64,000 nucleotides of DNA. Origin: Candidatus Fimenecus sp. (GTDB lineage Bacteria > Bacillota > Clostridia > Oscillospirales > Acutalibacteraceae). The stretch lies in contig JAZQWV010000046.1 of assembly GCA_045632525.1 (NCBI GenBank), forward strand, positions 574 through 64,573. Reading direction: 5' to 3'. A program made the translations under genes and the position numbers. Shown here piece after piece: positions 4,337 to 64,000 of the stretch. The notes below the pieces were generated by a model that did no database searches, was not told the DNA's origin, and saw only the letters and a list, made by a program, of their open reading frames with translations. Numbering within the stretch: the stretch's first letter is position 1; the number at the start of each line of letters is the position of its first letter.

Positions 4337-4406
4337 GCCTACACCACCATTCGTTAAACATTAAATAGAATAATAACATATTTTGTCGTTATTTACAATA
4401 AAACTG

Positions 4407-4435
4407 TTGACGATATTTGAACTTTGCAATAGAAT
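4407..4435 (+). promoter_or_regulatory. sigma-A-type promoter for the EamA gene
   Basis: TTGACG, 17 nt, TAGAAT. Confidence 0.5.
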
Positions 4436-4464
4436 ATTTTTATCGAAGTTTTTGGAGATTGTTT

Positions 4465-5439: not shown

Positions 5440-5518
<79 letters not shown>

Positions 5519-6383: not shown

Positions 6384-7586
6384 TTAATCCTCCTTAAAAG
6401 TAAAATCTTTTAAAATAGGAATGCCACCATAGACTCCACCCAAATAGTCTTTTCTAAAAGATTTATCATTTCTAACTTTATACTCAGCTAATGAAAAAAT
6501 TGAAGCTTCACCATTTTCATTTTTACTAGTAAACCAGATTTGATCTCGACGCATAAATCTTCCATCTAAAAGTGTTGTGTCATGAGTTGTATAAATCAAT
6601 TGACCATTTTGACTTTCTTTATAAAACAAATCAATAATATACTTTTGTAGTAATGGATGCAGTTGATTGTTTAATTCATCAATAATCAATCCTTTTCCAT
6701 ATAACGCTGCAACTTTGACATAAGAATATATTGTAATTGCCCGTTTAGTCCCATTAGACTCCAAATCCAAAGGAAGAAGATATTTTTCTTTATCTTTCCC
6801 AATATGATAAGTATAAACACTAATTTTATTTTTGTTTCTTTCGACTTCAATATCCTTGATTCCAACATCAATGGCGTTTAGAAATGACAGTAAACTCTCT
6901 TTCTCTTTTTCATCAAAACTCTTTTCGAAATAATAATCCAGCATGCTCTTTGCTTCGCCATCGCAAGAAAAAGAGAGTGGTAAAAAAGATAATACACAAT
7001 AAAGAACATCTCGAAATACATTTGTTTTCAATTTTAAACTACTAAAAAAAGATAAAGCTAACACATCGCTATCAATGTCTAAAAGATATTTCTCGCAAGA
7101 TTGTTTTACAGATGCACCTAACTCAATTTGTTTCAAATCTCTTTCTAATACAGTAACAGTTCTCTTAGTTTTAAGAGATTTTTTATAAAGCCACTCATAC
7201 TTAATTTTAGTTTTATTATAAATAAACCCATAACGATATTCATTTCCATTAAGACGATATACAGCTTCAAACTCAGTATCATCTTCGATAGAGTTCTGAT
7301 CAAGCAAAAACGGAAAATACCATTGACTTAAAAAGGGCTCTTCCTCTTTTTCGTTTTGTTTAAATGAACCACCAACTATTGTGCGAAAATACCCATAGGC
7401 ATCAACAAAATTAGATTTACCACTAGCATTTGCTCCGTAAATTGAGGCTACTTTCAACAGAGAATCTTCATTTTCTTGATTAATTAAATTGTATTGATGC
7501 TCTTTGTACGATTTAATGGCACGCATATCAAAAACCACTTCATCTTTAAAAGGCCCATAGTTTTTAAATCTAAACATTACAAGCAT
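6384..7586 (-). CDS. AAA_15/21-type ATPase (AbiLi / RloA-like)
   Basis: FRFKNYGPFKDE N-terminus, Walker A GANASGKSN, distal LIIDELNNQLHP (Walker B). ATG at 7586 after GGGGGAG. Confidence 0.75.
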   Translation of the reverse strand: MLVMFRFKNYGPFKDEVVFDMRAIKSYKEHQYNLINQENEDSLLKVASIYGANASGKSNFVDAYGYFRTIVGGSFKQNEKEEEPFLSQWYFPFLLDQNSIEDDTEFEAVYRLNGNEYRYGFIYNKTKIKYEWLYKKSLKTKRTVTVLERDLKQIELGASVKQSCEKYLLDIDSDVLALSFFSSLKLKTNVFRDVLYCVLSFLPLSFSCDGEAKSMLDYYFEKSFDEKEKESLLSFLNAIDVGIKDIEVERNKNKISVYTYHIGKDKEKYLLPLDLESNGTKRAITIYSYVKVAALYGKGLIIDELNNQLHPLLQKYIIDLFYKESQNGQLIYTTHDTTLLDGRFMRRDQIWFTSKNENGEASIFSLAEYKVRNDKSFRKDYLGGVYGGIPILKDFTFKED

Positions 7587-7690
7587 AATTTCTCCCCCTT
7601 TGTTATTATTATAAGCACAAAAAGTGCATTTAGTCAATAAATTTGTGATTTTTTCTCAAAAAAGTTTTTGTAATTCACAATTAAGCAATA

Positions 7691-49467: not shown

Positions 49468-49507
49468 TAAAAAAACGAGTTCACACAAAAGTGTGAACTC
49501 GTTTTTT
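49468..49507 (-). terminator. terminator of the disrupted host tRNA-Leu gene
   Basis: AACGAGTTCACAC-aaaa-GTGTGAACTCGTT with a T-run on the minus strand, immediately 3' of the tRNA CCA end. Confidence 0.65.
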
Positions 49508-49561
49508 TGGTGCGGGTAACAGGACTTGAACCTGCAAGTCTTGCGACACATGAACCTGAAT
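49508..49561 (-). pseudogene. 3' half of host tRNA-Leu(CAG): anticodon loop to CCA (attL of island 2)
   Basis: Minus strand reads ATTCAGGT-TCATG-TGTCGCAAGACTT-GCAGGTTCAAGTCCTGT-TACCCGC-ACCA. No 5' half is adjacent. Confidence 0.8.
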
Positions 49562-49706
49562 TTTATAAATAGGTGTGCCGATGAGTTCCTACGAGTTCCT
49601 TACGGTCCCCTGTTAAACCCTTTATTTATGCGGGTTTTTCGACCAAAATCGCCATAAAGCCACTAACCGTGCGCCCTGCACGGTTTTTCTCATTTTTCGG
49701 ATGTTT

Positions 49707-49750
49707 GTTAGAACGATTTTAGAAGCGTTTTATTAGAACATAGTTCTAAC
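49707..49750. promoter_or_regulatory. cluster of GTTAGAAC motifs (candidate integrase arm sites, left arm)
   Basis: GTTAGAAC, TTAGAAG, TTAGAAC, GTTCTAAC within 44 bp. Confidence 0.4.
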
Positions 49751-49892
49751 GTATCCTTTTACCTTGTCGGATTTTGAATTGTTTGAAATATAAAAAATTT
49801 TTTGATTCGGCTATGTAAGGCTATGGTATGGTTATGTATTTTTATAGCAAGGAAATCCCTTGATATAAAGGCTTTTGAGCCTCTTTGAGCGA

Positions 49893-49921
49893 TTGACAAG
49901 GAGTGTCGAATATTGTATAAT
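49893..49921 (+). promoter_or_regulatory. consensus promoter of the toxin mRNA
   Basis: TTGACA, 17 nt, TGTATAAT (extended -10). Confidence 0.65.
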
Positions 49922-50026
49922 ATGGATGGTGCTTCGCACCCTTAGAGGCTACCATAACGGTAGGCGGTTAGCCCTTCTTTACTAAGGAGGGGCACTTTTC
50001 CCTCCTAAATGAAAGGAGGGGTGCCA

Positions 50027-50113
50027 ATGGTTACTTACGAGACTTTGTTCCTTTTCGGTTCACTTGTTGTAGCAATTATCGCACTTGTTATTGACATAAC
50101 AAAAAAGAAATAA
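50027..50113 (+). CDS. 28-aa hydrophobic peptide, type I toxin candidate (holin-like toxin family impression)
   Basis: AAAGGAGGGG RBS. MVTYETLFLFGSLVVAIIALVIDITKKK: one TM helix plus a KKK tail. Structured 5' UTR with an anti-SD. Confidence 0.6.
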   Translation: MVTYETLFLFGSLVVAIIALVIDITKKK

Positions 50114-50184
50114 CCGCCCCTCGCCAAAAGTGCGGTTATTTCTTTAACCCATTATTAGGCTGACCGTCTATCGGTAGCCTCTCT
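50100..50184 (-). ncRNA. candidate antisense antitoxin RNA overlapping the toxin 3' end
   Basis: Minus-strand TTGACA, 16 nt, TATAAT at 50218..50191. Minus-strand terminator (stem 50107-50142) followed by TTTCTTTTTT. Confidence 0.45.
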
Positions 50185-50258
50185 GCTTATATTATAGCAG
50201 ATTTTACGGATTTGTCAACTGTTTGGAATTAAGCTTATTAATGTAGGAGTTATTAATT

Positions 50259-51857
50259 ATGAAAATTTTTTATTCTTGGCAATCTGATTTGCCGAATAGT
50301 AAAACGAGGGGATTTATCCAAGACTGTATCGATGCGGCAATAAAGCATTTGTCTGATATAGTTTTTATAGAGGCAGATCGTGACACGCAAGGCGAATTTG
50401 GATCTCCTGATATTGTAGAGACTGTTTTTTCTAAAATAGATGAGTGTGACTTATTTATTGCCGATGTTAGCATTGTGAACAAATATAATGCTATTGACGA
50501 TAACGGTGAAAAATCAAAAGCAATTAAATTATCCCCAAATCCTAATGTTCTTTTGGAATTGGGTTATGCAGCAAAAGCGCTTACATGGGAAAGAGTCGTA
50601 TGTATTATGAATACTGACTATGGTAAAGTCGGTGAACTTCCTTTTGATTTAGAACATAGAAGGCCACTACAATACTCGTTAGATGGTCAAAAAAAGTCGG
50701 CAGTAAAAGAGTATGTTCGCAATATCATAGTGGGCAATGTTTTAAATGTTATGGAAGAAGGCGTTCGTGCCAAAGGCAATACCGCAAATCATATTGTCGG
50801 GGGTATTTCTATGGAGAATGGAGAAATATCAAATTCTATTACTCCACTAGACCTACGGCTAACAAACAGTTTTAAAACTAAATATGATGAACTTAAAGAT
50901 GCATGTTTGTCGTTAATTGAAAAAATTAATTCAAACAAGTTGCCAACAACCGTTACGAGCGATGAGACGAAAGAAATTGATGCGCAAGAACAGACCAAAG
51001 AAGAAAAACTTTCAGCAATGGCAAAAACAATTACGTTGTTTATGGAGGAAGGTAAACCGGTTTCTATAAACGACAATGATATAGCGTGGATTCGTCAACA
51101 AGTAAAATTATTGTTTAGAATAGACTTAGCCGATGATTTTTTCAGCTTGGGTGACTTGAAAATTAAAATAGGTAATTTTTTGGTTCAATCAGAGTATATC
51201 GGCACGACAAACGAAAAGGTTAAGTATGATGATTTGAGAGATTTGCAATCAAAGCTATTAAAGCTTGATGTGCTTGAGCTTTTTATAAAAACTTTTGACG
51301 ACTTGATATTATTACCTTTAGCAATATATAACAACTCTACGATTTCAGACGAGGAAATCTCGATATCGGTAGTTGTTGACCCTGAAACCGCAGAAGTGGT
51401 TATTCCCTCTAGAGAACTCTTGGCTGAAGAACTTCGCGGGGATGATGAGCATGTTGGATTAGAAGGTGCCGTGTATGATGCTGGCTACGCTAAGATACTT
51501 ATGATGCCTGAAAGTGGCGAAATAACTTATGATACAGATATTTCTTTCGACCCAAGCGATATACAGAAAGAATTGCGTAAAAACGCAACTGATGTTTTTG
51601 GAAACTCTACATATAAACCTGATGCAGATGATTACGAAGATGAAATCATAAAGTTTATAGCATCTCCAATGCAAGGACGAAACGATACGTTGTTGTTTGA
51701 GATTGAAAGCCTTAGAGCAAACGAAAGAAAATGGATAGGTCCATTAATTGCATTAAAACCGAAATCTGATACTATTCGTTTGTCATATTCGGTAAAATCT
51801 AAAAATTCAAATGGTCTTATTTCTTCCGATTTGATATGCAAAAATAGTAATAAGTAA
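50259..51857 (+). CDS. NDT/TIR-like N-terminal domain protein with ~380-aa uncharacterised C-terminal region
   Basis: MKIFYSWQSDLP...CDLFIADVS...NPNVLLELGYAAKAL resembles the nucleoside 2-deoxyribosyltransferase/TIR-like Rossmannoid pattern (D..E.GYA). TAGGAG RBS. Confidence 0.55.
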   Translation: MKIFYSWQSDLPNSKTRGFIQDCIDAAIKHLSDIVFIEADRDTQGEFGSPDIVETVFSKIDECDLFIADVSIVNKYNAIDDNGEKSKAIKLSPNPNVLLELGYAAKALTWERVVCIMNTDYGKVGELPFDLEHRRPLQYSLDGQKKSAVKEYVRNIIVGNVLNVMEEGVRAKGNTANHIVGGISMENGEISNSITPLDLRLTNSFKTKYDELKDACLSLIEKINSNKLPTTVTSDETKEIDAQEQTKEEKLSAMAKTITLFMEEGKPVSINDNDIAWIRQQVKLLFRIDLADDFFSLGDLKIKIGNFLVQSEYIGTTNEKVKYDDLRDLQSKLLKLDVLELFIKTFDDLILLPLAIYNNSTISDEEISISVVVDPETAEVVIPSRELLAEELRGDDEHVGLEGAVYDAGYAKILMMPESGEITYDTDISFDPSDIQKELRKNATDVFGNSTYKPDADDYEDEIIKFIASPMQGRNDTLLFEIESLRANERKWIGPLIALKPKSDTIRLSYSVKSKNSNGLISSDLICKNSNK

Positions 51858-51876
51858 CTCCATTGTTGCGACGTAG

Positions 51877-52596
51877 CTATTCTTGAATATCCTTCTGAAT
51901 ATGCTTTTTTATATGTTTTTGCGATGTATGATACCTTTTGATTAAGACACTAATAACAACCGTTAGTAATAAAAATATTGTAATTACCCAAGGAATAAGA
52001 AAATAAAACTTATATTTGCTAAGATACTTACTGCCCAAGGAAAACAAAACCAATAAAGCATTTGATATTATTGCTGTTAATCCTATTAATAAGTAATCTT
52101 TTTTATTCAACTTTTCTTCTTGGCTTTTGTGAATGGAATATCCTATTTGATTACCAATTCCAAAAAGAGCATATGCAAAAAAGAGTCCAAAATCCCCGAA
52201 AGGAATTGCAATTATAGTGAGAGACAAAATAAGTCCACTTATAATGTTTTGGTGCACTTTATTTATTTTACTAAGGTCCTCTATATTACAAAGTTTGTTA
52301 TACAGTAATTTAGTAAGAAAATTGCTCAAAAGGATTGCAAACAGCACCAAAATTTCCGGAATGTTATTAATTAACTCTTGAAGAAACTTGGAAGCGAAAA
52401 TGTTTTTGTCAATGTTGGGGGCATTAAAGATTGTTTCAAAGTAATATGGAAAAAGTATGAGTAAATAATCAATTAAGTATATTACTGCAAACCCTAACTT
52501 ATCAGAAAAATTAATCTTCCCTTTACTCTCTAACCAAACCATAATTACAAGGAATATTATAAAAAATACAGATATTGTGCTACAAATAGCATTCAT
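51877..52596 (-). CDS. polytopic membrane protein, unknown function
   Basis: About 6 TM segments. AGGAGAGG RBS. Confidence 0.55.
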   Translation of the reverse strand: MNAICSTISVFFIIFLVIMVWLESKGKINFSDKLGFAVIYLIDYLLILFPYYFETIFNAPNIDKNIFASKFLQELINNIPEILVLFAILLSNFLTKLLYNKLCNIEDLSKINKVHQNIISGLILSLTIIAIPFGDFGLFFAYALFGIGNQIGYSIHKSQEEKLNKKDYLLIGLTAIISNALLVLFSLGSKYLSKYKFYFLIPWVITIFLLLTVVISVLIKRYHTSQKHIKKHIQKDIQE

Positions 52597-52665
52597 AAAA
52601 CAAACCTCTCCTTTGATAAATATTTTAAAGGCAGTCTCACTTTTGATAGTGAGGCTGCCTTTCGT

Positions 52666-52977
52666 TTATCTGTTATTTAATCGTTCTGCGGTGCTAATAA
52701 GCACGTCAAGATCTTCTTGGGACATGTTACGAGTTAACTCATATAATTTTTGAACGAGCTGAGGTTCTTTTATATCTTCGTCGAAGAACTCTCTAGGAGT
52801 AACGCCTAGATATTCACATATATAAAGAAACTCTCCCAAGGACGGCATTGATCTGCCAGATGAAATACTCTGCATATAACTCTTGCTGTGTCCTAAGTCT
52901 GTGCTCATTCTATATTCCGAAACATTCTTTTTCGTTCTTAAAACAGAAATTCTATCCCTAATAAATTGTAAATCCAT
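52666..52977 (-). CDS. XRE-family HTH repressor
   Basis: VSEYRMSTDLGHSKSYMQSISSGRSMPSLGEFLYICEYLGVTPREFF. ATG 52977 after GAGGTG. Confidence 0.8.
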   Translation of the reverse strand: MDLQFIRDRISVLRTKKNVSEYRMSTDLGHSKSYMQSISSGRSMPSLGEFLYICEYLGVTPREFFDEDIKEPQLVQKLYELTRNMSQEDLDVLISTAERLNNR

Positions 52978-53014
52978 CGTCAACACCTCGCATTTATTAT
53001 TGTATAATAATTTT

Positions 53015-53076
53015 AGCGGTAATATTCACGATAAAATTACCGATTATAGTTGATAATTACCGCTAAAAGCGGTATA
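53015..53076. promoter_or_regulatory. divergent promoter/operator region with four ATTACCGNT half-sites
   Basis: AGCGGTAAT-12 nt-ATTACCGAT and ATTACCGCT-aaa-AGCGGTATA. The second site overlaps TATAAT at 53073-53078. Confidence 0.5.
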
Positions 53077-53120
53077 ATGTAGTAGGATATTCAAACTAAA
53101 ATCAGTAATATGCGATAAGG

Positions 53121-53609
53121 ATGTATAACGTGTTAAAGATTTTTACTGTTGCATTTTTCGGTCACAGATATATAGATAATCCGTTAAAGGTGGAAGAATT
53201 GCTTGAAGAGCAGATAAGAAAACTTATTAACGAAAAAGAATATGTTGATTTTATTGTTGGACGCAACGGCGAGTTTGACCAGTGCGTTTCGTCAGCGGTG
53301 CTTCGTGTACGAAAAAATTATAGGGATGATAACAGCTCCCTTGTTTTGATACTACCGTACCCAACCGCCGAATACATTAACAACCATAATTATTATGAAG
53401 ATTATTATAGTGACATTGAAATTTCGCATGCAGCTTCAAAAGCGCACCCGAAATCTGCCATACAAATCCGCAACCGTGAGATGGTAGACAGAGCTGATTT
53501 GGTTATTTGCTATATTGAGCACAACGAGGGCGGTGCCTATAAAACCGTAAAATATGCTTCCGAGCAGAATAAACCCATAATCAATCTTGCTGATTGTGTT
53601 GACTATTGA
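53121..53609 (+). CDS. SLOG-superfamily protein (DUF1273 / YpsA / YoqJ-like)
   Basis: FFGHR..., IVGRNGEFDQ, RNREMVDRADLVICY...GGAYKTV. The start may be GTG 53130. Confidence 0.65.
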   Translation: MYNVLKIFTVAFFGHRYIDNPLKVEELLEEQIRKLINEKEYVDFIVGRNGEFDQCVSSAVLRVRKNYRDDNSSLVLILPYPTAEYINNHNYYEDYYSDIEISHAASKAHPKSAIQIRNREMVDRADLVICYIEHNEGGAYKTVKYASEQNKPIINLADCVDY

Positions 53610-53623
53610 AAAGGAGAAGAAAA

Positions 53624-53806
53624 ATGAAAGTTTTTAAATTTATAGTAGTAAGTATCTTGACTTTAATTACAATTCAAACCGCATATTTTGCTTTATTATA
53701 TAAAGCCAATACAGCAACCGGGACTTTTCTTATATGTTTAGGGATAACACTATTTGTCGCTTGTGATGGCGGCTTGGAGAAGAAAAACGAATCGTCTTCT
53801 AAATAA
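53624..53806 (+). CDS. small two-TM membrane protein
   Basis: AAGGAG RBS. MKVFKFIVVSILTLITIQ... Confidence 0.5.
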   Translation: MKVFKFIVVSILTLITIQTAYFALLYKANTATGTFLICLGITLFVACDGGLEKKNESSSK

Positions 53807-53971
53807 CTTTCTTTTATTTACGGTTTGTGTTATAATGTTTTGTAGAAAACTGTCTACTTGACAGAGGGTGCGTTAGCTGTAAGTCCGTTTTATAGTACAC
53901 TAACTATGCTAAAATTTAAATAATAGATGGTGAAAGCCAAAATTGTTTAAATTATTAAAAGGAGAATTAAT

Positions 53972-54205
53972 ATGCCTGATATGAATGATTTTCATGCTTT
54001 TAAAAGCACAAGCGGCGGTGACGGAGGCGGTTCTAAAGGCGGCGGTGGTGGCAAATGGGACTTTGGCTGCGGCTGGGTTGTGATAGTAGTTGTCGCTTAT
54101 ATGCTAATACATTTTATTTTCAGTGGAGCTAGTTGGGATGCAATAGACACTCTTTTAGGACTTGGTTTTCTTGCATTTTTGTTTGCAAGATCGCTTTTTA
54201 GATAG
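53972..54205 (+). CDS. small Gly-rich membrane protein
   Basis: AAGGAG RBS. GGDGGGSKGGGGGKW followed by two TM helices. Confidence 0.5.
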   Translation: MPDMNDFHAFKSTSGGDGGGSKGGGGGKWDFGCGWVVIVVVAYMLIHFIFSGASWDAIDTLLGLGFLAFLFARSLFR

Positions 54206-54215
54206 GATTGACAAG

Positions 54216-54416
54216 ATGAATGTTTTTAATAAAGAAATATATGCAAAAAATCTACGCGAGTATTATATAAAAAATTATGGCGAAAATGAAGCGGATATAT
54301 GGTATGAGCAACCGGCAGTTAATGTTTGGGTGTTCGAACGTGCTAGTAAGATTATCACACTTAAAAGTCATGTACTGACCGGTGAAGTAACAAAATTTGA
54401 AGAAGAAAAAGGTTGA
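54216..54416 (+). CDS. small hypothetical protein (66 aa)
   Basis: Internal ATG of track ORF 54162..54416. Weak RBS. Confidence 0.35.
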   Translation: MNVFNKEIYAKNLREYYIKNYGENEADIWYEQPAVNVWVFERASKIITLKSHVLTGEVTKFEEEKG

Positions 54417-54458
54417 TTCAATATTTAATTGTATTGTTGATTATTCAGGAGGTTTAAT

Positions 54459-54836
54459 ATGGGTGGTTATATAAAAAGAGATGCTGTGCAAAGATTTGAA
54501 ACTATGGCTTTAAATACCAAGGTTAATAAAGAAATCTTTGATGCTTTTAAAGACCATTGCAAGGAAATGGGGTATCCTATGAATGTTATGCTCGAAACAT
54601 TCATGCAGCAATATGCGAATGGAAGATTTAATTTAAACTCAGAAGATATCCTTAAATGGAAAAATGATGACTATGATGTTGAAACTTTGAACACAACATT
54701 TAACAAAGAAATTTATCTAAGCTTTAAATCCAAATGTAAGGGTAATGGATATTTTGTAAAACATGTAATAATGGCATTTATGGAAAAGTTTGCAAGTAAG
54801 AATTTAATTTTGGAATATGTATGGTTTGAAAATTGA
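54459..54836 (+). CDS. tandem-repeat DNA-binding-like protein (two RHH-like modules)
   Basis: LNTKVNKEIFDAFKDHCKEMGYPMNVMLETFMQQYA and LNTTFNKEIYLSFKSKCKGNGYFVKHVIMAFMEKFA. AGGAGG RBS. Confidence 0.5.
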   Translation: MGGYIKRDAVQRFETMALNTKVNKEIFDAFKDHCKEMGYPMNVMLETFMQQYANGRFNLNSEDILKWKNDDYDVETLNTTFNKEIYLSFKSKCKGNGYFVKHVIMAFMEKFASKNLILEYVWFEN

Positions 54837-54885
54837 AATTAAACATATTAATTAACATTGTCGTGCAATGAATGAGGTATAATTA

Positions 54886-56262
54886 ATGTTTTATGTATAT
54901 AGATTCTTAGATAAAACTAAAAATGTTATTTATGTAGGTAAATCAAAACAGGATTTAGAACAACGTTTTAGAGGACATTTGCATTTACCAGAAGAATGTT
55001 ATGATCAAGTATATAAAATCGAATACATAGAGTGCTCTACGGAATCGGATATGTCGATTAAAGAAATTTATTACATTAACAAGTATCGAAATACTAATTT
55101 TTTCTTTAATGTGCTGGATACTACCGAATTGCCAACAAGTGTTACCTTCGATGATAAATGGAAGCAGTACAAAGGACCTTTGGGTTCTCATTTTCACAAA
55201 TCAATTAATTATAAAAAAGGTTATACCAGTGAAAAAACGGTACGATACAACAAAGATGGCTCTATAGACAAACGAAAGACCAATAAAAAGAAAGGTGATT
55301 CTTCGTTTGTCGAAGGCTTTACAAGTGATGAAGTTGATTTAATAATTAAGCAACTTATTAAAAATATTAATGAGGCAACAAATAATAATCAGGAACAGAT
55401 TAGATTTAGAAATTTGATGATGTTTATGTTAAGCATAAACCTACCTTTAAAAACAAATGATTTCTTAAATCTTAAGTACAAAGATTTGTTTGATAGTAAG
55501 GATAAATTAAAATCTGTTGAAATGAAGTTGAGTAGATTTTATAAAGACACTATCCTTAAAGTTCCCTTACGAAAAAATGTTCGTAAGATAATATTGGCGT
55601 ATACCCAAAGATACAACATGTCTTACAGTGAAAATTCAGAAGATTATCTTTTTCTTTCGCGTGAACATCAAATTATTTCACCAATATCTTGGGGTCGAAT
55701 CCTTTTAGACACATCCAAAGCAGCAGGGATTACTAAAAGCATTGGTGCAGAATCAATTCGAAAAACATATGGGATCAATGTATACACCCGTTCCGAAGAC
55801 AAACTTAATGCATTGCTGTTCTTAGGGGAACTGTGGGGACACATTCGTGAAGCTCAGATAATACGTTATTTGAATCTTTCTGAAGATGAGATTGATTACA
55901 AGTATTATTTTGGCGAAGCCTATGCAATCGGAAAGGTGAGTTTATCTAAAATCAAATGTTTAAAAAATAATGATGAATCTTCAAAAAAAGATTTGATTCC
56001 CGATACTCTTTCTAAGAAAAGATTTGCTCAAATCCCGAAAAAGACTATTAATCCATCTAAAAAAACTTCTAAAAAGAAACGGCAAGTATTCCCTGTCGAG
56101 AAAAAGGTAGAGATAATTAAGAAAAATTTAAATGATAAAATCCTAATAAAAACGCTTGCAGAAGAGTATAAAATTTCAATGAATACAATATGTAATTGGA
56201 TAACTTTATATAAGAAATACGGCGAGTCGGGTTTGGAAGATAGGCGTTACAAAAACGAATAA
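54886..56262 (+). CDS. GIY-YIG domain / degenerate tyrosine-recombinase-like domain / IS3-OrfA-like HTH fusion protein
   Basis: YVYRFLD..VIYVGKS..RF..H (GIY-YIG). ESIRKTYG and LWGHIREAQIIRYL align to recombinase box II/Tyr region but lack the first Arg and both His. C-terminal LAEEYKISMNTICNWI HTH. Confidence 0.55.
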   Translation: MFYVYRFLDKTKNVIYVGKSKQDLEQRFRGHLHLPEECYDQVYKIEYIECSTESDMSIKEIYYINKYRNTNFFFNVLDTTELPTSVTFDDKWKQYKGPLGSHFHKSINYKKGYTSEKTVRYNKDGSIDKRKTNKKKGDSSFVEGFTSDEVDLIIKQLIKNINEATNNNQEQIRFRNLMMFMLSINLPLKTNDFLNLKYKDLFDSKDKLKSVEMKLSRFYKDTILKVPLRKNVRKIILAYTQRYNMSYSENSEDYLFLSREHQIISPISWGRILLDTSKAAGITKSIGAESIRKTYGINVYTRSEDKLNALLFLGELWGHIREAQIIRYLNLSEDEIDYKYYFGEAYAIGKVSLSKIKCLKNNDESSKKDLIPDTLSKKRFAQIPKKTINPSKKTSKKKRQVFPVEKKVEIIKKNLNDKILIKTLAEEYKISMNTICNWITLYKKYGESGLEDRRYKNE

Positions 56263-56310
56263 TAGTTGCAAAACAAACAGTTATTTTCAAGGATGTGAAA
56301 AACAAGTTTT

Positions 56311-57063
56311 ATGACAGAATGGATATGGGATGGCGAAATGGATTGTGGTTGGGAAGATCTATCGTGCTTGCTAGTAAAGAAATGTGATAATTTTACTAAG
56401 ACCTTATTAGAAACAACAAGTTTTTCGCCTATAGAAGAAAGCAAATCACTTATCACTGCGGAATGTATGCAAAGGTTCGAAAGTATTGTAAGCATCTTGG
56501 CAGAAGATATAAAAGGTGGTGTAGACTACCAATATGAAGATTTATTTGAAGATTTCCCAAATGCTAAAAAACTTAATTGTTGGATTCTTCTCGGCTCATT
56601 AACCGAAACCACATTACAAATGTTTCTAGCTTTTTACATAGAAGATTATAAAAACACAAAATGGCAACAATGGGAAGATTTTAAGTTGGAGCAAGTACGC
56701 ACCCCGATTATTGAATGTATCCAAAAACTAGTCAACGATGGCATTCTGGAAGCGGCTCATGCACGGTCATTGAAAGATGCTATTAGAGATACTATTAAGT
56801 TGCATACCCGGGAACATGATGTTCAGAAAATAATGCTCGATGAATTGATTCAACTATTAAGCAAGTTGGAGTTATTCGATGAAGATGAACTCACATATTT
56901 AAAAGGAATCCAATCTAATAGAAACGGAATACACTCGTTCCAGAAAAGATCTATAGGGACGTGGAATGACTTACAATATAGTGTTCGTTTCTTTTGCTTC
57001 TTATTGGAGTGGGTGGTTTTCCATCTACCTGATATACCTGATGAAGCGTACTATCAAGATTAA
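56311..57063 (+). CDS. hypothetical protein
   Basis: 250-aa ORF, helical, no recognisable motif. Start uncertain. Confidence 0.4.
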   Translation: MTEWIWDGEMDCGWEDLSCLLVKKCDNFTKTLLETTSFSPIEESKSLITAECMQRFESIVSILAEDIKGGVDYQYEDLFEDFPNAKKLNCWILLGSLTETTLQMFLAFYIEDYKNTKWQQWEDFKLEQVRTPIIECIQKLVNDGILEAAHARSLKDAIRDTIKLHTREHDVQKIMLDELIQLLSKLELFDEDELTYLKGIQSNRNGIHSFQKRSIGTWNDLQYSVRFFCFLLEWVVFHLPDIPDEAYYQD

Positions 57064-57104
57064 ACCTTTATCAATCAAGATTTAAAACAACTAAGGAGAA
57101 TAAT

Positions 57105-57935
57105 ATGGCAGTTAAAATAAGCAAATTACTTTGTGCTATGTTGGCATTAATGATTTTTATGACCGCTTGTGGTAACACTAAAGAGCAAACTAAATGTGGA
57201 TCGTGTGGCGAAAGCATTAGTGGCAATGCGAAATTCTGCTCTAATTGTGGTGCCGGAATAGCCGTTGATAAAGAAGAAACTACTACTTCAGAGTCCTCTA
57301 ACAGCGAGACTAAATGTACTCACACTTGGCTTGACGCTACATGCTCTTCGGCTAAAAAATGTGAATTGTGTGGAATTATTGAAGGCAACCCCCTTTCTCA
57401 TAATTGGAGTGAAGCATCATGCACTTCACCTAAAAAATGCACATTATGTGGACAAACAAGCGGCAAAGCAAAAGGACATCAATGGATGGATGCTACATAC
57501 GAAAATCCCAAGTATTGTGTTATTTGTGGGGTCGAGTCTGGAGAACCTTTGGTAGATCCTAATTATGACAAATATATTATGGCAGCACATCTTTACCAAG
57601 CGGTAATTGATTCTGCCAAATTCCCATCATCTGTTCGTATCGAACGAGCATATTATATTGGCGATCTTGGGCAAGGGTATCCTGCTGTTAGATTAGAGTG
57701 TGCTGCCGCCAATTCAATGGGTGGTAGTGGAATACTCTATGGTGTTGTTATACAATATCCGGCAGTGGGATATGAAGATGATCCGTATGCCGATCATATA
57801 TATGCTTATGAAGACAAATATTGTTTTGAATGTAATATATATGATAATTGTCCGGTTCTAAATTATAATGGTTATGAAAAGTTAGATATTTCACGCATTG
57901 AAAGTGTACATGAAAACGATATTAATTTTAATTAA
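57105..57935 (+). CDS. lipoprotein with zinc-ribbon and three Cys-rich H.W...C....K.C..CG repeats
   Basis: Signal peptide ending MTAC (lipobox-like). CGSCGE..FCSNCG, then three repeats. AAGGAG RBS. Confidence 0.6.
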   Translation: MAVKISKLLCAMLALMIFMTACGNTKEQTKCGSCGESISGNAKFCSNCGAGIAVDKEETTTSESSNSETKCTHTWLDATCSSAKKCELCGIIEGNPLSHNWSEASCTSPKKCTLCGQTSGKAKGHQWMDATYENPKYCVICGVESGEPLVDPNYDKYIMAAHLYQAVIDSAKFPSSVRIERAYYIGDLGQGYPAVRLECAAANSMGGSGILYGVVIQYPAVGYEDDPYADHIYAYEDKYCFECNIYDNCPVLNYNGYEKLDISRIESVHENDINFN

Positions 57936-58088
57936 CTATATGATTTTCTAAGATTTTCAAATATCATTTTCTTCTTTTATAAATTAATAAATTGTTTAAA
58001 ATTTCATATAACTCTTTACTGCTGTTACATAACTCTACACAACTCTACGGGGTGAGGTTTGAGCAGTAAAAGAGTGGCAAAACCAGGG

Positions 58089-58117
58089 TTGACAAAGGGT
58101 TTTCCTCATGTTAAACT
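58089..58117 (+). promoter_or_regulatory. promoter at the start of the ORF-free region
   Basis: TTGACA, 17 nt (ending TGT), TAAACT. Confidence 0.45.
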
Positions 58118-58123
58118 AATAAT

Positions 58124-58285
58124 GACCTATTTAAAATAAAGCAGGAGTGTTTTTAAAAGATAACGAAAATTGCAATGTTCCGAGAGGGTTAATTGCGCTT
58201 GTTTGTTATGCTTGGCTCCTGTGTATAGGGCAATGGCAAAAGGACTGCAAGTAAGCACTTACCTTTCGGGGTAGGTGCTTTTTTG
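58124..58285 (+). ncRNA. candidate ~160-nt small RNA (promoter to intrinsic terminator)
   Basis: No RBS-associated ORF. Ends in AGCACTTACC-tttcg-GGTAGGTGCT plus T6; the T:G wobble in the stem is only valid on the plus strand. Confidence 0.4.
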
Positions 58286-58399
58286 TTATCTTTTTGCCTT
58301 CTTTTTATGTTTTGTCCTCCGGTAAGTGACGGGGCCAAAATAAACACATAAAAGAAGGAGTATTCAAAATGATTGTATTTGACAACACGGGAAGTTAGT

Positions 58400-59260
58400 T
58401 GCACCAAAGGTTTGGTGCCGAGAGCTACAGTCTGAGGTCTGCGACAGGCTGAGAATCACTGGCAGAAAGCCCTTGAAGTCGGGTTAGACTTCATCAGCCG
58501 ATGCCCTAAGGCTGATTATCCGTATGACCCGTAGGCGTGGTAATACGGAATTAAAGAGCTATCACTGTTCTGGCAACGGACAGGGTGATATATTAAATGG
58601 GCATCACGGAATGTAAGTGACCTATTACGTTGCTCGGTTTTATGATTACCCGTAATTAATCAGAACCCACATTCACGCTGTGGTCCAAAATACGATAGTA
58701 GGAAAAGCCGTGATATACAAAGCCCGTCACGAAGGCAATGTGAATTTTAAAGTGCGGATAGCAGAGCCGTTACGAAACGAGGATTGTTCGACTGCGAACC
58801 TGCGTACACGGCAGACCGGATGGTATAGTGTAAAAAAACCACTTGTGCACAGTGGGCGAAGATGCAAAGTGCAATATACAGATATGCTTTCACTTATGGC
58901 AATCTGTGAACGAAAATAAGTGCATAACGACGGCTTGGATTCAGCCATAAGTTATTGACGAAAATTATGGAATCCACGACGTTTGAGAGTTCCGTCGTAA
59001 AATAAAACTGCTCAAGCGGTGGTGCTACCGTCCATTAAGGGAATTCTCCAGCCCTTATGGGAATTGCACACGAAGTTTCCGGGGTTTAATCGGTAATGAA
59101 AATCCCCGCCGAACGAGCCCTTAGTCTCGGCCAGGCTGAAATGCCTTGCACTCGGCGTAGCGTCAGTAAATAATACAAGGTTATTTACACTCTTGAACTA
59201 CAAGAGAACACGCACGGAAAATCTATTAATCTTGCGTTAAAGTGTAAATAGATTAAGCCA
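58400..59260. ncRNA. candidate large structured ncRNA (GC-rich, helix-dense, ORF-free); identity unknown
   Basis: Hand counts give 45-62% G+C per 60-nt line versus about 28% in the neighbouring gene. Many nested helices. Only mutually overlapping RBS-less ORFs. Confidence 0.4.
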
Positions 59261-59312
59261 AGTACTAACCTTATTTTACAGCAGAATACCAGAACAGAAC
59301 TTTCGCTTTGGG

Positions 59313-60045
59313 ATGATTTATGACTGTCTCTTCGAGAGTGTATGATTTACTTTTCGAGAGCAAGTTGCACCTGCTAAACAAACCTTCGGCTCTCTGCAAG
59401 TTGTCATTCGTGGAATGAATGACAAGCTGCAGGAAGCCGAAGAGAATAACAAACAAACTACAAAGCAGGTGCTATGACTATCATTTCTATGATGATAAAT
59501 GACTGTCCTTTTGAAATGATTTATGACTCTCTTTTTGGGAGCCGAGCCGTTTCTATTGGACGAAGTCAGATAGAAACGGCTCGGAGACGTAGTCGGAGAG
59601 CCGAGATTAGCAGGGCATAATACCCCGCGTCAAAGAAGAATCAGTAAGAAATGAAGGTTCGTACACACCTTTGACAGTGGGTGTATTATGCCCTGCGTAC
59701 TTTCATTTTAAGAGCCATATAGAGTAATTATAGATTAATATTAGATTACATTTTACAATGACTTTAATTTGTATATGGCTCTTGTATGATTGATGATTTA
59801 CTTTTCGAAATGATATATTACCTATCTTTTTGAAATGATATTTTGAAATTACTTTCATTCCCCTAAAAAAGGATTGTGCTGACCGTCCTTTCGAGATTAC
59901 TTTCTTTTCGATATCATGTCAGCACAATCTGCTGAAAGATTTTTATGCTTTACGTTTTGATATGATATATGACTTTCGTTTCGAAATGAGCAATGCGTTC
60001 CTATTTTCATTTTGAAATGCTTTATGACTGTCATTTCGAAATGAG
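59313..60045 (+). repeat. array of about 12 direct iterons, consensus (T)TATGACTGTC(N)TTTCGAAATGAG, interspersed with three long inverted repeats
   Basis: Copies start at 59313, 59341, 59497, 59519, 59791, 59813, 59838, 59881, 59898, 59965, 60000 and 60020. The best copy contains the 14-bp palindrome TCATTTCGAAATGA. Confidence 0.7.
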
Positions 60046-60211
60046 GGGGCAAAATTTTCGTCAACAGAATTATTTTCGTCATGAGAACCCCAAATATTTT
60101 ATTGACGAAAATACATCTATTATTACTATTCTCGTACACAGTTTTTCACGCAAGGCTCGGTCCCTATCCTTGCGTTGAAATAAAATTTTTAGAGAAAGGA
60201 GACGGTTTGCT

Positions 60212-61165
60212 ATGTCAGATTCTAATAATATTACAGTGCTAAACCCGGGTCTGTATAAAAACTTGTTGGCACAGGTTGAAGCAATTTACAACCACAGTAA
60301 TGAACTTAGTTTTAAAACAAGAGCTCGGTACTTTGAAGCAACAAAAAGGTTATGTAAGTTTTTAGCCGATAATTTTCGTTTGCAAAACTTCAAGAATGTG
60401 GAAGACCGGCACTTTAAAGCGTATGTGGAACACCTGAAAGAAAACAATTCCGCTGCAACTATTCAATCCGATCTGTCGGGCATACGGTATTTCCACAGAA
60501 AATCCGGTAGTAAAAACAGGCTATCCCCTAATAGCAAGTTAAATCTGCCCAAACGAGCGACGGGTGTAAAAGACCATTCGCTATTAGATAAAGAGCTTGT
60601 CAATATTCGACAGTGGGCTATCCAAACAGGTCGGCAGGATGCGGTAATTGCGATAGACTTTTCCAGTGAATTTGGTCTACGGCTTGAAGAAATCTGCACA
60701 CTGAGAGTTGAATACCTTATGTCTGCATTAAAAACAGGACAGCTCGTCATAAAAGGCAAAGGCGGTCAGACAAGGGCTATTGATTTAAGCGCAAAGCAGC
60801 GCGGTATTATTACCGATAATTTGAACTATGCCAGGTGTTCAGGGCGGTATCCAAGAGATTATTTAATCTCAAGAAGTGAAAAGGGCGGCGTACAGCGAGA
60901 AAAGCGTTCTTTGCAGAATTGGATGAGTTATAACAGAAAATACTTTATGGTAGAAAACCGTGAGGATTTGAGTGAAGACGGTAAAAAGAAAAGAACTGAA
61001 ACAATCTCATGGCACAGTCTGAGACACACCTATGCACAAAGAACCTATGAAGAAGCTTTAAAAGAAAGACCGAAGAAAGCCCGAAAGATTGTAAGCGAAA
61101 ACTTAGGTCACCATCGGACTGAAGTAACAAGAATTTATTTGGCCGATAAGCCAAAGAAAAAGTAA
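60212..61165 (+). CDS. tyrosine recombinase (317 aa, plasmid/resolvase-like size)
   Basis: FGLRLEEICTLRV, KGKGGQTR, WHSLRHTYAQ, LGHHRTEVTRIYL: the full catalytic set. Confidence 0.85.
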   Translation: MSDSNNITVLNPGLYKNLLAQVEAIYNHSNELSFKTRARYFEATKRLCKFLADNFRLQNFKNVEDRHFKAYVEHLKENNSAATIQSDLSGIRYFHRKSGSKNRLSPNSKLNLPKRATGVKDHSLLDKELVNIRQWAIQTGRQDAVIAIDFSSEFGLRLEEICTLRVEYLMSALKTGQLVIKGKGGQTRAIDLSAKQRGIITDNLNYARCSGRYPRDYLISRSEKGGVQREKRSLQNWMSYNRKYFMVENREDLSEDGKKKRTETISWHSLRHTYAQRTYEEALKERPKKARKIVSENLGHHRTEVTRIYLADKPKKK

Positions 61166-61377
61166 TCTATTAATTAAAATTGTGAAGGAAGAATTTAAAT
61201 TGACTACAATATCCTGCTGACGAAAATCTGTAGGATTGATATATAGGGACAAAAAATAGGAAGAATGTAACGGCGGTGACATCCGTCACCGCCTGTAAGG
61301 AGTATTTATTATGTTATATGTTTCAAGGCCAGCCTCCGGCGGAAATGGAGGCAAATAATATAGGAGGTAAAGTGTCC

Positions 61378-61584
61378 ATGAAAGATATTAGCGTTCCCAT
61401 TTGGCAGAAGAGTAATTTAACACTCGATGAAGCCGCCGCTTATTCCGGCATCGGTAAAAACACTATGCGTAATCTCTGTAACGCAGAAGATTGCGACTTT
61501 GTGTTATGGATTGGTGCAAAGCGGTTAATCAAGAGACAAAAATTAGACGAATATCTTGCTAATCGTACTCGCATTGAAAGATAA
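61378..61584 (+). CDS. excisionase/MerR-type HTH protein
   Basis: LTLDEAAAYSGIGKNTMRNLC...LWIGAKRLIKRQKLDEYL. AGGAGG upstream. The longer track ORF starts inside a 9-bp GC hairpin. Confidence 0.65.
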   Translation: MKDISVPIWQKSNLTLDEAAAYSGIGKNTMRNLCNAEDCDFVLWIGAKRLIKRQKLDEYLANRTRIER

Positions 61585-61681
61585 CAACTGAAAAAGCAGG
61601 TTTTCCGTCGCAGTATGTGGCTCTCACACACGCCACATACTGTGTTGGGAAATCGCAGGACAAGGAAAGGAGCGTAGTTTA

Positions 61682-61918
61682 ATGTCCCTTTGCTTTTCCA
61701 GTTATAACGAGGCTTATCAGACTATGTTTACCGAGTATAAAGATATTGTTTCCGTTAAGGAAGCATCCATAATGCTTAATACCGGCAGAAAACAAATTTA
61801 TAAACTCTTAAAGCAAGGTAAGCTTGATAAGCTCGAACATAACGCTAAAGGATTTTTAATCACGAAGCGTTCGATTGTAGCTTATGTATTAAATGCTTCA
61901 CAAGAAGTATCTGCATAA
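61682..61918 (+). CDS. excisionase-family HTH protein
   Basis: VSVKEASIMLNTGRKQIYKLLKQGKL. AAAGGAG RBS. Confidence 0.65.
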   Translation: MSLCFSSYNEAYQTMFTEYKDIVSVKEASIMLNTGRKQIYKLLKQGKLDKLEHNAKGFLITKRSIVAYVLNASQEVSA

Positions 61919-62032
61919 GCTACACCGCCTGTTTTCAGGCGGCATACATGCTTTAAAATAGCCGTAAATCTATTTAATGCGGCTTTATGAAGGAGAAGTT
62001 CGAATTGTTAAAGTGTGTGAAAGGAAAGAAAA

Positions 62033-63214
62033 ATGGTAAAAGGATCCGTACAGGAAAAAGGTGGCTATTTGCATACCGTTATCAGTTACACCGATAAAGA
62101 CGGTAAGCGAAAGCAAAAATGGCAAAGCACAGGGCTTACAGCCAAAGGTAACAAGCGTAAGGCACAAGAATTTTTGAAAGAACGCATTGATGAGTTGGAG
62201 ATGACACTTGAACGTGAAGAAACTCAAATACCCGATATGCCGTTCTCGCAGTTTATGTCAAACTGGCTTACGATGATTAAACCCACCGTTTTAATTACCA
62301 CCTACGGCAGCTATCAGTATTTCATTGAAAAGAGAATTAACCCCTATTTTGATGAAAAGAATATTACACTGCAAAAGATACGAACAGTGGATATTCAAGA
62401 GTATTACAACACAATGTTGTCGAAGGGTACGAAATGGAATTCGGTTGCAAAGCATCATGCAATCATTCGCAAGGCACTCGATTATGCGGTTAAGATGGAT
62501 TACATATTAGTAAACCCCGCAGTAAAAATCGAAACACCTAAGCGACAAAAGTTTATTGCTGAGCATTATAACCGTGAGGAGCTTCAGGAACTTTTTGAAG
62601 CAGTAAAGGGTGATTTGCTTGAAGTTCCCGTTATACTCTCGGCGTTCTATGGGCTTCGAAGAAGTGAGGCTTTAGGACTAAAGTGGAGTGCGATTGATTT
62701 CGAGCAGAAAACCCTATGTATTAAGCATACTGTGTGCCGAATATCTGTTGACGGCAAGGATGTAATTGTTCGCAAAGACACTACGAAAAATAAAACAAGT
62801 CTTAGAACGTTGCCCCTAATACCTGATGTTGAAAAATTATTGCTTAAAACCAAAAAGCAACAAGAGAGCAACCGAAGAAAATGTCGCAACGCATATAACA
62901 AGGAATTCCTTGATTATGTGTGCGTAGATGATATGGGGAATCTTTTAAGGCCGGATTATCTGTCACAACATTTACAGACTGTGCTCAAAAGAAATAACCT
63001 AAAGCATATTCGGTATCACGATTTGCGACACTCTTGCGCTTCGCTATTACTTGCCAACGGTGTATCTTTAAAAGAAATCCAAGACTGGTTAGGCCATTCG
63101 GATTTCAGTACAACGGCAAATATTTATAGCCATTTAGAGTATGGAGCCAAGGTCAAGTCTGCTAACAAGATTGCAGAAAACTTGAGCCTTGAAGAAAAGA
63201 CAAAGGACGGGTAA
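62033..63214 (+). CDS. int: tyrosine integrase with N-terminal arm-binding-type domain (Tn916-Int-like layout)
   Basis: GSVQEKGGYLHTVISYTDKDGKRKQKW, GLRRSEALGLKWSAIDF, YHDLRHSCASLL, LGHSDFSTTANIYSHL. Confidence 0.9.
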   Translation: MVKGSVQEKGGYLHTVISYTDKDGKRKQKWQSTGLTAKGNKRKAQEFLKERIDELEMTLEREETQIPDMPFSQFMSNWLTMIKPTVLITTYGSYQYFIEKRINPYFDEKNITLQKIRTVDIQEYYNTMLSKGTKWNSVAKHHAIIRKALDYAVKMDYILVNPAVKIETPKRQKFIAEHYNREELQELFEAVKGDLLEVPVILSAFYGLRRSEALGLKWSAIDFEQKTLCIKHTVCRISVDGKDVIVRKDTTKNKTSLRTLPLIPDVEKLLLKTKKQQESNRRKCRNAYNKEFLDYVCVDDMGNLLRPDYLSQHLQTVLKRNNLKHIRYHDLRHSCASLLLANGVSLKEIQDWLGHSDFSTTANIYSHLEYGAKVKSANKIAENLSLEEKTKDG

Positions 63215-63237
63215 ATCCCGTCCCATACATAACTTAT

Positions 63238-63270
63238 TTCTAACAGAATTCTAACGGATTTTTTGTAGAA
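63238..63270. promoter_or_regulatory. TTCTAAC motif cluster (candidate arm sites)
   Basis: TTCTAAC-agaa-TTCTAACGG ... TGTAGAA. Confidence 0.4.
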
Positions 63271-63367
63271 ATACCCTCATTTTTGACATTAGAATCACTT
63301 GAATTTCGAGGGCTTTTCGGATAAAGAAAATCTCTCAAACCCGCATAAACACTGGGTTTGAGAGATG

Positions 63368-63454
63368 ATGGTGCGGGTAACAGGACTTGAACCTGCACAG
63401 CCTTGCGACCATTAGAACCTGAATCTAACGCGTCTGCCAATTCCGCCATACCCG
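63368..63454 (-). tRNA. island-borne tRNA-Leu(CAG), intact, 87 nt with encoded CCA
   Basis: GCGGGTA/TACCCGC acceptor, GCG/CGC D-stem, TTAGA-TTCAGGT-TCTAA anticodon arm, long variable arm, GCAGG-TTCAAGT-CCTGT T arm. Confidence 0.9.
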
Positions 63455-63483
63455 CATATATGACTTAAATCCTTTCAAAAATC

Positions 63484-63519
63484 TTAGAACCGAAACGGTT
63501 TGTTAGAAATCCGTTAGAA
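63484..63519. promoter_or_regulatory. TTAGAA motif cluster (candidate arm sites, right arm)
   Basis: TTAGAAC ... TGTTAGAA-atc-CGTTAGAA, inverted relative to 63238-63257. Confidence 0.4.
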
Positions 63520-63643
63520 ATAAGTGTTTTTTTGAGATTTTTGAACAAACAGGAATCAAGGTCAAAAATCGTGAAACCCCTTGATTTTATGCGGTTCTTC
63601 TAAAGAAACAGCAGAGGTCTGAAAGAGCCTCTCGCGCGTTAGT

Positions 63644-63682
63644 ACCTGAATCATGCGTGTTTGCCAATTTCACCATACCCGC
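63644..63682 (-). pseudogene. 5' half of host tRNA-Leu(CAG): acceptor to anticodon loop (attR of island 2)
   Basis: Minus strand reads GCGGGTA-TG-GTG-AAATTGGCAAA-CAC-G-CATGA-TTCAGGT, then non-tRNA sequence. Confidence 0.8.
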
Positions 63683-64000
63683 ATATTAAATTTTCTATTT
63701 TTTCTTTTTATAAAAAACTACTTTGTAACCGGGCCCACGTGACACTTGCGGTGCCCAAAATCTTTTTTCACTTGGAGCGTGAAAAGATTTTGACCGCTGC
63801 GTCTTTTTAGCCTTCGCTTCATCCTCCACAGGAGGCGCTCTGCTAAAAACTGCCAGTTCCGTCACATCCGCATATATTAAAATGCTCGTTTATAATAACA
63901 TTTTGCCCCTTAAAAGTCAAGGAGAAATGGGAGAGATAAAAAGCAAAAGGATGGGATTTACCCATCCTTTTTGTGTCTATGTCTTAAATGAGTTTTGCCT

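Follow-up and report, generated by a model that had tools for sequence, protein, structure and literature searches.

In a stretch of 64,000 nucleotides from Candidatus Fimenecus sp. (contig JAZQWV010000046.1; hereafter the window) we found a host tRNA-Leu(CAG) gene (tRNA A) that is split in its anticodon loop, with its two halves lying at the two ends of an island of 14,082 bp between the cores (49562-63643). A second, complete tRNA-Leu(CAG) gene (tRNA B) lies inside the island next to the gene of a tyrosine integrase. We are confident that this 14.08-kb island was integrated in the anticodon loop of the host gene by tyrosine-integrase recombination, and we presume its own tRNA to be the replacement. 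As far as can be judged from DNA, the window shows every sequence-level feature of the strategy described in actinobacteriophages as tRNA-dependent lysogeny. The mechanism applies, whereas "lysogeny" in the strict sense does not: a temperate phage, which belongs to the definition, is lacking because the element looks like a small non-phage island.

Split tRNA gene, island tRNA and attachment sites

The 5' half of tRNA A (GCGGGTATGGTGAAATTGGCAAACACGCATGATTCAGGT, 63682 to 63644 on the minus strand) comprises the acceptor strand, the D-arm and the 5' strand of the anticodon stem, ends in the loop and forms attR (core 63644-63651). The 3' half (ATTCAGGTTCATGTGTCGCAAGACTTGCAGGTTCAAGTCCTGTTACCCGCACCA, starting with ATTCAGGTTCATG and ending with CCCGCACCA) is displaced to attL at 49561 to 49508 on the minus strand (core 49554-49561), and a terminator of its own with an 18-bp perfect stem follows directly at 49469-49508. 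An earlier note on this DNA, made from the letters alone, had described both fragments and the terminator in these terms and had proposed that the joined halves form an 85-nt tRNA. Strand reading bore this out, and ARAGORN, run on the halves joined at ATTCAGGT, accepted the 85 nt as tRNA-Leu(cag). When ARAGORN was run on each junction region alone no tRNA was found, and the only tRNAs detected by ARAGORN and Rfam in the whole window were a tRNA-Met (5440-5515) and the intact tRNA-Leu(CAG) of the island. The claim that no tRNA is rebuilt therefore stands, as neither attL nor attR yields a regenerated tRNA by either program. The DNA that follows the core at attR (ACTAACGCGCGAG...) is unable to complete tRNA A. 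Identity from junction to junction is exactly 8 bp (ACCTGAAT on the plus strand, at 49554-49561 and 63644-63651), in agreement with the shared core given earlier, and the bases on either side differ at both junctions. No third copy of the core was found inside the island apart from the one contained in tRNA B.

A scan for the 5' half plus core in one genome per GTDB species found 22 loci, and in 10 of these the full joined 85-nt sequence is present as an intact gene. The genomes with this intact gene are Clostridia/Erysipelotrichia metagenome-assembled genomes (MAGs). Because the identical 85 nt are intact elsewhere, the two fragments are halves of a real and widespread tRNA gene.

The island tRNA was recognized as complete by ARAGORN, by Rfam (RF00005, 54.8 bits) and by its cloverleaf, and has discriminator A73, an encoded CCA and a hairpin terminator just downstream (63330-63368). 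It is oriented as the split gene and starts 188 bp past the attR core, where the earlier note had placed it at about 190 bp; its coordinates had been given as 63368-63454 on the minus strand, one base off the correct 63369-63455. The sequence of tRNA B is independent of that of the host tRNA. In the cloverleaves of both tRNAs the anticodon stem is CATGA/TCATG in the host and TTAGA/TCTAA in the island tRNA, and the D-stem GTG/CAC and GCG/CGC, respectively. These differences are compensatory and set the two fragments apart from the intact gene, as had been argued before. The gene is convergent with the integrase gene (int; 62033-63214, plus strand), 155 bp from its stop codon. This gene encodes a tyrosine integrase of 393 amino acids (aa) with arm-binding, SAM_3 and catalytic domains (PF00589, 7.8e-22; PF14659, 6.6e-14; a weak match to PF14657; phrog_1, 1.7e-65).

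This position next to int is the usual site of a regenerated tRNA, and tRNA B also contains the 8-bp core and has arm-type repeats on both sides. It could thus be thought that integration was of the classical kind, with tRNA B as the regenerated host gene made from a host 5' and an island 3' part, and the two fragments of tRNA A as older relics. In both stems, however, the two parts of tRNA B co-vary, so it is not a hybrid, and the left island end bears the 3' half of tRNA A and no displaced 3' fragment of tRNA B. The identity of joined tRNA A with intact genes elsewhere likewise speaks against relics, as does the recurrence of the same geometry across the integrase family described below with clearly foreign host halves (e.g. 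locus L030, 26 of 39 positions identical). We regard a classical event as very improbable.

The 188-bp spacer between the attR core and tRNA B (63456-63643, minus strand) forms the P' arm of the attachment site. It carries three direct (T/G)TTCTAA(C/G) arm-type repeats (63484-63520), a hairpin motif (GAACCGCATAAAATCAAGGGGTTT, ~63575-63600) and a weak promoter candidate at 63565 to 63537. An inverted pair of TTCTAAC lies between tRNA B and the int stop codon (63238-63255), where the 24 nt at 63232-63255 form a 92% inverted repeat with 63502-63525 that brackets tRNA B. The P arm at the other island end holds a repeat cluster on the minus strand (49700-49755; GTTAGAAC, GTTCTAA, TTCTAA and GTTCTAAC) and a hairpin motif (AAACCCGCATAAATAAAGGGTTT, 49610-49637). 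The (G/T)TTCTAA(C) repeats thus lie 145-190 bp from the core on the left and 125-165 bp on the right. Window-wide TTCTAAC is not enriched (12 sites versus 11 expected), yet 6 of the 12 sites fall in these few hundred bases of the att regions. Core and arm repeats together have the layout of a lambda-type attP with arm sites.

In the 18 nt directly after the core, 12 of 18 positions agree in register with the way tRNA B continues toward its 3' end (P ~3e-4 against random 18-mers of the island). We considered that attP might be a decayed full tRNA 3' half and rejected this, as a global alignment over 84 nt was no better than with shuffled sequence. The arm motif had also been noticed before: TTAGAAC was said to be identical to the junction of anticodon stem and loop in the island tRNA. 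The motif is indeed present in tRNA B (63412) and clustered near both att sites. An origin of the motif from the island tRNA is unsupported, as the repeats of relatives (GTCTACC in L027, TCTATCC in the L032 group) mismatch their own tRNAs. Because relatives use other arm repeats unlike their own tRNAs, the match looks coincidental. A hairpin motif of the form AAACC(C)GCATAAA..GGGTTT occurs on both attP arms (49610-49637 and ~63575-63600) and, inverted, as the terminator of tRNA B (63337-63364), and L024, a locus with an integrase 44% identical to that of the island, has one like it close to its att region (~7570-7590). An accessory protein may bind to this motif.

Upstream of the split gene, the host promoter was found at 63892-63920 on the minus strand (TTGACT-17-TATTAT, TG-extended). 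It is strong, with 10 of 12 consensus matches, and after integration it faces tRNA B across the 5' half, with no minus-strand terminator flagged by the scan in between. Promoter and split gene are separated by a host leader (63683-63871, minus strand), which is context outside the island; its first 22 nt (GCGGATGTGACGGAACTGGCAG) mimic the 5' end of a tRNA-Leu as far as the D-loop, and hairpins come after them. No match for the leader was found in Rfam. Homologues of it occur in a Ruminococcaceae MAG (L005) as three tandem 166-bp units (4388-4885, minus strand) upstream of an intact tRNA-Leu(TAG). Several leader helices keep their pairing between L005 and the window through double changes, a comparison of only two independent sequences. 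The tRNA-Leu 5' fragment at 63871 to 63850 was considered as the scar of an older integration and rejected, as it is the start of the conserved leader unit and is broken in the D-loop.

Layout across integrase relatives

In a search with the integrase, viral contigs yielded 3 relatives and metagenome contigs 509, 80 of which were fetched. A script asked for each locus whether a tRNA adjoins int and whether a second copy of the 5' part of that tRNA lies upstream; 82 loci were examined and 61 were assessable. The same layout was seen in 55 of the 61: a tRNA is cut off in its anticodon loop, and its 5' half is followed by the core, a spacer, a complete tRNA with the same anticodon, and int. In these loci the two tRNA starts, that of the half and that of the complete gene, are 167-230 nt apart, and 8-234 bp separate the complete tRNA from the int stop codon. 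The target is mostly tRNA-Ser(CGA) (48 loci, most of them from one human-gut lineage), followed by Leu-CAA (4 loci) and by Leu-CAG, Ser-TGA and Gln-CTG with one locus each. The Leu-CAG locus (L027) has an integrase 70% identical to that of the island and the same ATTCAGGT/ACTA junction. There are 12 different host halves among the loci, and near-identical Ser-CGA islands stand behind at least three different host halves with the cut at the same base, which places the island boundary at the core. At two loci both halves were found and could be rejoined to a valid tRNA, a tRNA-Gln(CTG) with halves 8.27 kb apart (L104) and a tRNA-Leu(CAA) with halves 11.4 kb apart (L097).

These contigs also bear on whether the arrangement might be an artefact, either of reads with and without the island having been joined in a population mixture, or of a misjoin of two tRNA-Leu loci. 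The source is probably a metagenome-type assembly, and look-ups in the public gene index returned no exact protein record for the integrase, the ADH gene or the left flanking gene. Both junctions of the window are nevertheless clean, in that 8 bp are duplicated precisely at the anticodon loop and the arm repeats stand as far away as expected, and the same type of junction was assembled independently in dozens of contigs from other samples. An assembly chimera is the least probable of the explanations considered here and deserves hardly any credence.

More distant relatives were found as well. Four GenBank scaffolds named "Bacteriophage sp." from human faeces encode integrases 47-51% identical to that of the island. 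In three of them, int adjoins a complete tRNA-Ser(CGA), which a spacer separates from the core and from a tRNA 5' half or a foreign arm beyond it; the fourth has only a tRNA 3' half behind a foreign arm. A contig of Enterococcus faecalis (L115, OR846594.1; integrase 39.5% identical) has a tRNA-Lys(CTT) 5' half at the junction beyond int and the complete tRNA-Lys(CTT) on the other side, 356 bp upstream of int (sites 2071-2145 and ~3820-3860). This looks like the same strategy in a different layout and resembles tRNA-dependent integration in a culturable host. In L024 the tRNA-Leu(CAA) sequence that adjoins int consists of anticodon arm and 3' part only, which appears to be the classical form of attP.

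In some relatives the island tRNA itself has been cut. In seven loci (L040, L051, L064, L065, L069, L072 and L080) the int-side DNA follows the Ser-CGA islands with 95-99% identity, but only as far as the anticodon loop of the island-borne tRNA-Ser(CGA). The cut lies ~100 bp beyond the int stop codon, and the unrelated DNA beyond the loop has direct repeats of its own 170-250 nt from the core (TTCTCCCC four times, TTCTAAC four times or TCTATCC twice). Related tandem junctions occur in L112 and L113, and the order foreign P arm, core, spacer and complete tRNA is also found among L112, L113 and L114. The foreign DNA looks like P arms of other elements that integrated in the island tRNA, with the replacement tRNA serving as a new attB.

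This raises the question of whether the window itself is only the latest step of a serial tRNA replacement, in which the split tRNA A gene had been brought by an earlier and now decayed element. Such stacking on island tRNAs in the relatives would fit, and so would the break of synteny at attL compared with close relatives. The 3' end of tRNA A, however, has no integrase or island remnant beside it; what lies there is a conserved operon of the host that runs on the opposite strand. The tRNA-like fragment upstream of attR, being part of a leader also conserved in L005 and broken at the D-loop instead of the anticodon loop, is no such relic, and there is no further core copy inside the island. 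We therefore consider an earlier element as the source of tRNA A unlikely and continue with tRNA A as a gene of the host.

Among the closest relatives is L026, with an integrase 98% identical and DNA 84% identical over 58462-63232. A 13-nt sequence, AGGTGGCGTTACC (reverse complement GGTAACGCCACCT), abuts the anticodon loop of tRNA-Leu(CAG) in L026 (10725-11250), beside a decayed serine-recombinase gene, and in the unrelated contig L002 (160-350), where an intact tRNA-Leu(CAG) follows 125 bp after it. A serine-integrase element may target the same loop in these two contigs, perhaps with a tRNA of its own.

Proposed mechanism and known systems

Read in tRNA sense, attP would have been ...TTTATAAA-ATTCAGGT-ACTAACGCG... 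and attB ...GCATG-ATTCAGGT-TCATG..., and recombination of attP with the anticodon loop of the host gene accounts for both junctions. As the two sites share only 8 bp, strand exchange leaves two dead halves with no tRNA rebuilt. Since tRNA B lies between the attP core and the 3' end of int, integration would put it behind the promoter of the host tRNA. Its expression could come from read-through from the captured host promoter, from its own weak promoter, or from both; at least partial read-through is suggested because the host promoter lies upstream and no terminator was flagged in between. We infer that tRNA B would supply the lost decoding function, i.e. replace the host gene, that losing the host tRNA would cost fitness, and that the island has kept its mobility. 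Together with an excisionase encoded on the island, the integrase would excise it precisely and restore the host gene, with GCATGATTCAGGTTCATG as the expected attB junction and TTTATAAAATTCAGGTACTAACGCG as the expected attP junction. With any other kind of loss, the only tRNA-Leu(CAG) nearby would go as well and the cell would be left without this tRNA; the design would therefore also stabilise the island. A joining of the two halves at the RNA level, as in the trans-splicing of archaeal split tRNAs, was rejected, as reading of the junctions revealed no complementarity between the DNA after the 5' half and that before the 3' half; bacteria are not known to have this pathway.

Several observations weigh against this reading of integration and replacement. 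tRNA-Leu(UAG) could read CUG by wobble, and read-through from the host promoter could be lowered by a weak spacer hairpin that has a T-rich tail. In L026 another insertion truncates the counterpart of the island tRNA at its anticodon loop, next to a decayed serine-recombinase gene, and no tRNA was detectable in the 19 kb examined of this contig. Because this copy is interrupted, the island tRNA is possibly dispensable in some hosts. No attP or circular form of the island was found when viral contigs were scanned with the island side of attP/attR. The earlier note had proposed a database search with the joined 85 nt and its flanks. The scan with the 5' half plus core recovered the intact gene in other genomes; an empty site with the same flanks was not found. 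The neighbour of attL is a conserved host gene of 401 aa with homologues 85-94% identical in Clostridia/Oscillospiraceae MAGs. No empty site was found by way of these homologues either, as synteny breaks here in L106-L109. The homologues are preceded by glycoside-hydrolase or TauE genes, without a tRNA.

The departure from the usual case of tRNA regeneration, which the earlier note had emphasized, holds, yet it was already described and tested in 2024 for tRNA-dependent lysogeny (Guerrero-Bustamante & Hatfull, mBio 2024, PMC10865867). In that system a tyrosine integrase uses an attB in a tRNA gene with a core of ~10 bp (8-17 bp), the tRNA is not rebuilt, and a phage tRNA of the same isotype is required for viable lysogens. 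This was demonstrated genetically in Fionnbharth, and further actinobacteriophage cases include LeBron, Cain and Gaia (PMC10865867). The tyrosine integrase with arm sites, attB in a tRNA gene, the short core, the lack of a rebuilt tRNA and the cognate tRNA borne by the element are all shared with the island. The closest parallel is Gaia, whose 8-bp core lies in a tRNA-Leu (CAA) and whose own tRNA is downstream of int (PMC10865867), as the island has an 8-bp core in a tRNA-Leu and its own tRNA-Leu adjoining int. The principle has thus been known since 2024, and from its sequence the island would appear to work in the same way as the published cases.

There are also differences. The host is a member of the low-GC Clostridia from gut or rumen, and the island, without detectable phage structural genes, does not qualify as a temperate phage. 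Similarity to mycobacteriophage integrases is low, with all matches in phage collections less than 60% identical and those to cultured phages at most 40%. In the family the tRNA is fixed between the attP core and int, behind the captured host promoter, whereas in Fionnbharth it lies elsewhere and has a demonstrated promoter of its own. The phage mechanism was demonstrated experimentally, while the island is known as a sequence. Prophage Lj965 of Lactobacillus johnsonii is cited in PMC10865867 as a possible case outside the actinobacteria. As far as that citation describes it, Lj965 resembles the island in its Firmicutes host, in a tRNA reportedly not rebuilt at the junction and in a cognate tRNA that it carries, and differs in being a full prophage instead of a 14-kb island without phage structural genes.

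Classical elements in anticodon loops (phage HP1 and phage T12; Islander-type, PMC4383910) share with the island the kind of integrase, the crossover in the anticodon loop, the position of int at the tRNA end and the displaced fragment at the far end. Their attP carries the 3' part of the tRNA and the gene is regenerated, whereas the island shares 8 bp, followed by the decayed match at 12 of 18 positions, and nothing is regenerated. With the Tn916 module the island has in common an Int with N-terminal arm-binding region, SAM_3 and catalytic domain, and an excisionase of the Tn916-Xis family. Unlike the island, which lacks conjugation genes and is site-specific in a tRNA gene, Tn916 has conjugation genes and AT-rich variable targets.

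Other island genes and wider implications

The excisionase of the Tn916-Xis family is encoded upstream of int (61276-61584, plus strand; PF09035, 2.7e-18). Between the two lies a gene for a small HTH_17 protein (61682-61918, plus strand; 24.1 bits, below the Pfam cut-off of 27), a possible second directionality factor or regulator. A second tyrosine recombinase of 317 aa with PF00589 and SAM-like N-terminal domains is encoded at 60212-61165 on the plus strand. Directly upstream of it, DNA without open reading frames (ORFs) holds a direct repeat of ~24-42 nt in seven copies (..TGATTTATGACT..TTTCGAAATGA..; 59300-60045, plus strand). These repeats may be iterons or recombinase-binding sites, and the region of repeats and second recombinase is common to L026 and L027.

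A further backbone segment of 0.9 kb (58380-59260, plus strand) is free of ORFs, GC-richer and strongly folding (z = -5.4 versus shuffles). L026 has it in conserved form (84% DNA identity) and L027 in part; compensatory changes are seen against both, and the segment is a candidate for a large structured RNA. Rfam gave no match for it at E<=0.1, and a scan of viral contigs with a conserved 24-mer from it also gave none.

Cargo genes include an ORF of 458 aa (54886-56262, plus strand) with an unusual fusion of GIY-YIG, tyrosine-recombinase catalytic and HTH_Tnp_1 domains, and a regulator with a Cro/CI-type HTH (52666-52986, minus strand), both from Pfam and PHROGs. The island also encodes a zinc-ribbon protein. 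A cargo protein of 532 aa (50259-51857, plus strand) has a weak N-terminal TIR-like match (PF10137, 5.5e-4, below cut-off; PADLOC TIR effector, 2.8e-4), from which it may be a defence effector. At the left end (49893-50218) a 34-aa Hol_Tox peptide is encoded (50009-50113, plus strand; PF16935, 2.2e-8) behind a perfect sigma-70 promoter (49893-49921). A convergent perfect promoter (50218 to 50191, minus strand) and a terminator near 50100 would yield an antisense RNA, and the module looks like a type I toxin-antitoxin system, which may add to the stability of the island.

No capsid, tail, terminase or lysis genes were found among the island ORFs with Pfam and PHROGs, and no Pfam match to conjugation genes (relaxase, coupling protein, type IV secretion) was found among the scanned island ORFs. 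Comparison of the island DNA with phage and plasmid collections gave matches only for its tRNA.

What goes beyond the published cases is the phylum and habitat, the non-phage nature of the element and the fixed position of the tRNA across a large clade with several targets, together with the likely capture of the host promoter and the way in which elements stack on the tRNAs of others. PMC10865867 left open how widespread such integration is beyond actinobacteriophages, and the window and its relatives bear on this question. The strategy is the default layout of a large clade of integrases in gut and rumen Firmicutes, with 509 metagenome relatives and the layout in 55 of 61 assessable loci, and at least five tRNA species are targets; with this island, which has no detectable phage structural genes, it is found outside phages. 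The ends of such islands will be misplaced by island finders that look for a regenerated tRNA together with a displaced 3' fragment, and tRNA annotation in these genomes may count alleles of mobile elements as host genes.

The stacking of elements suggests a route for the turnover of tRNA genes. We tentatively propose, as a possibility that we hold to be rather doubtful, that core, spacer, tRNA and int form a self-contained cassette for tRNA replacement, which would capture the promoter, make imprecise loss costly and offer a fresh attB to the next element. If this were true, elements would stack, and the chromosomal tRNA alleles of gut Clostridia would be progressively swapped for alleles of mobile elements.

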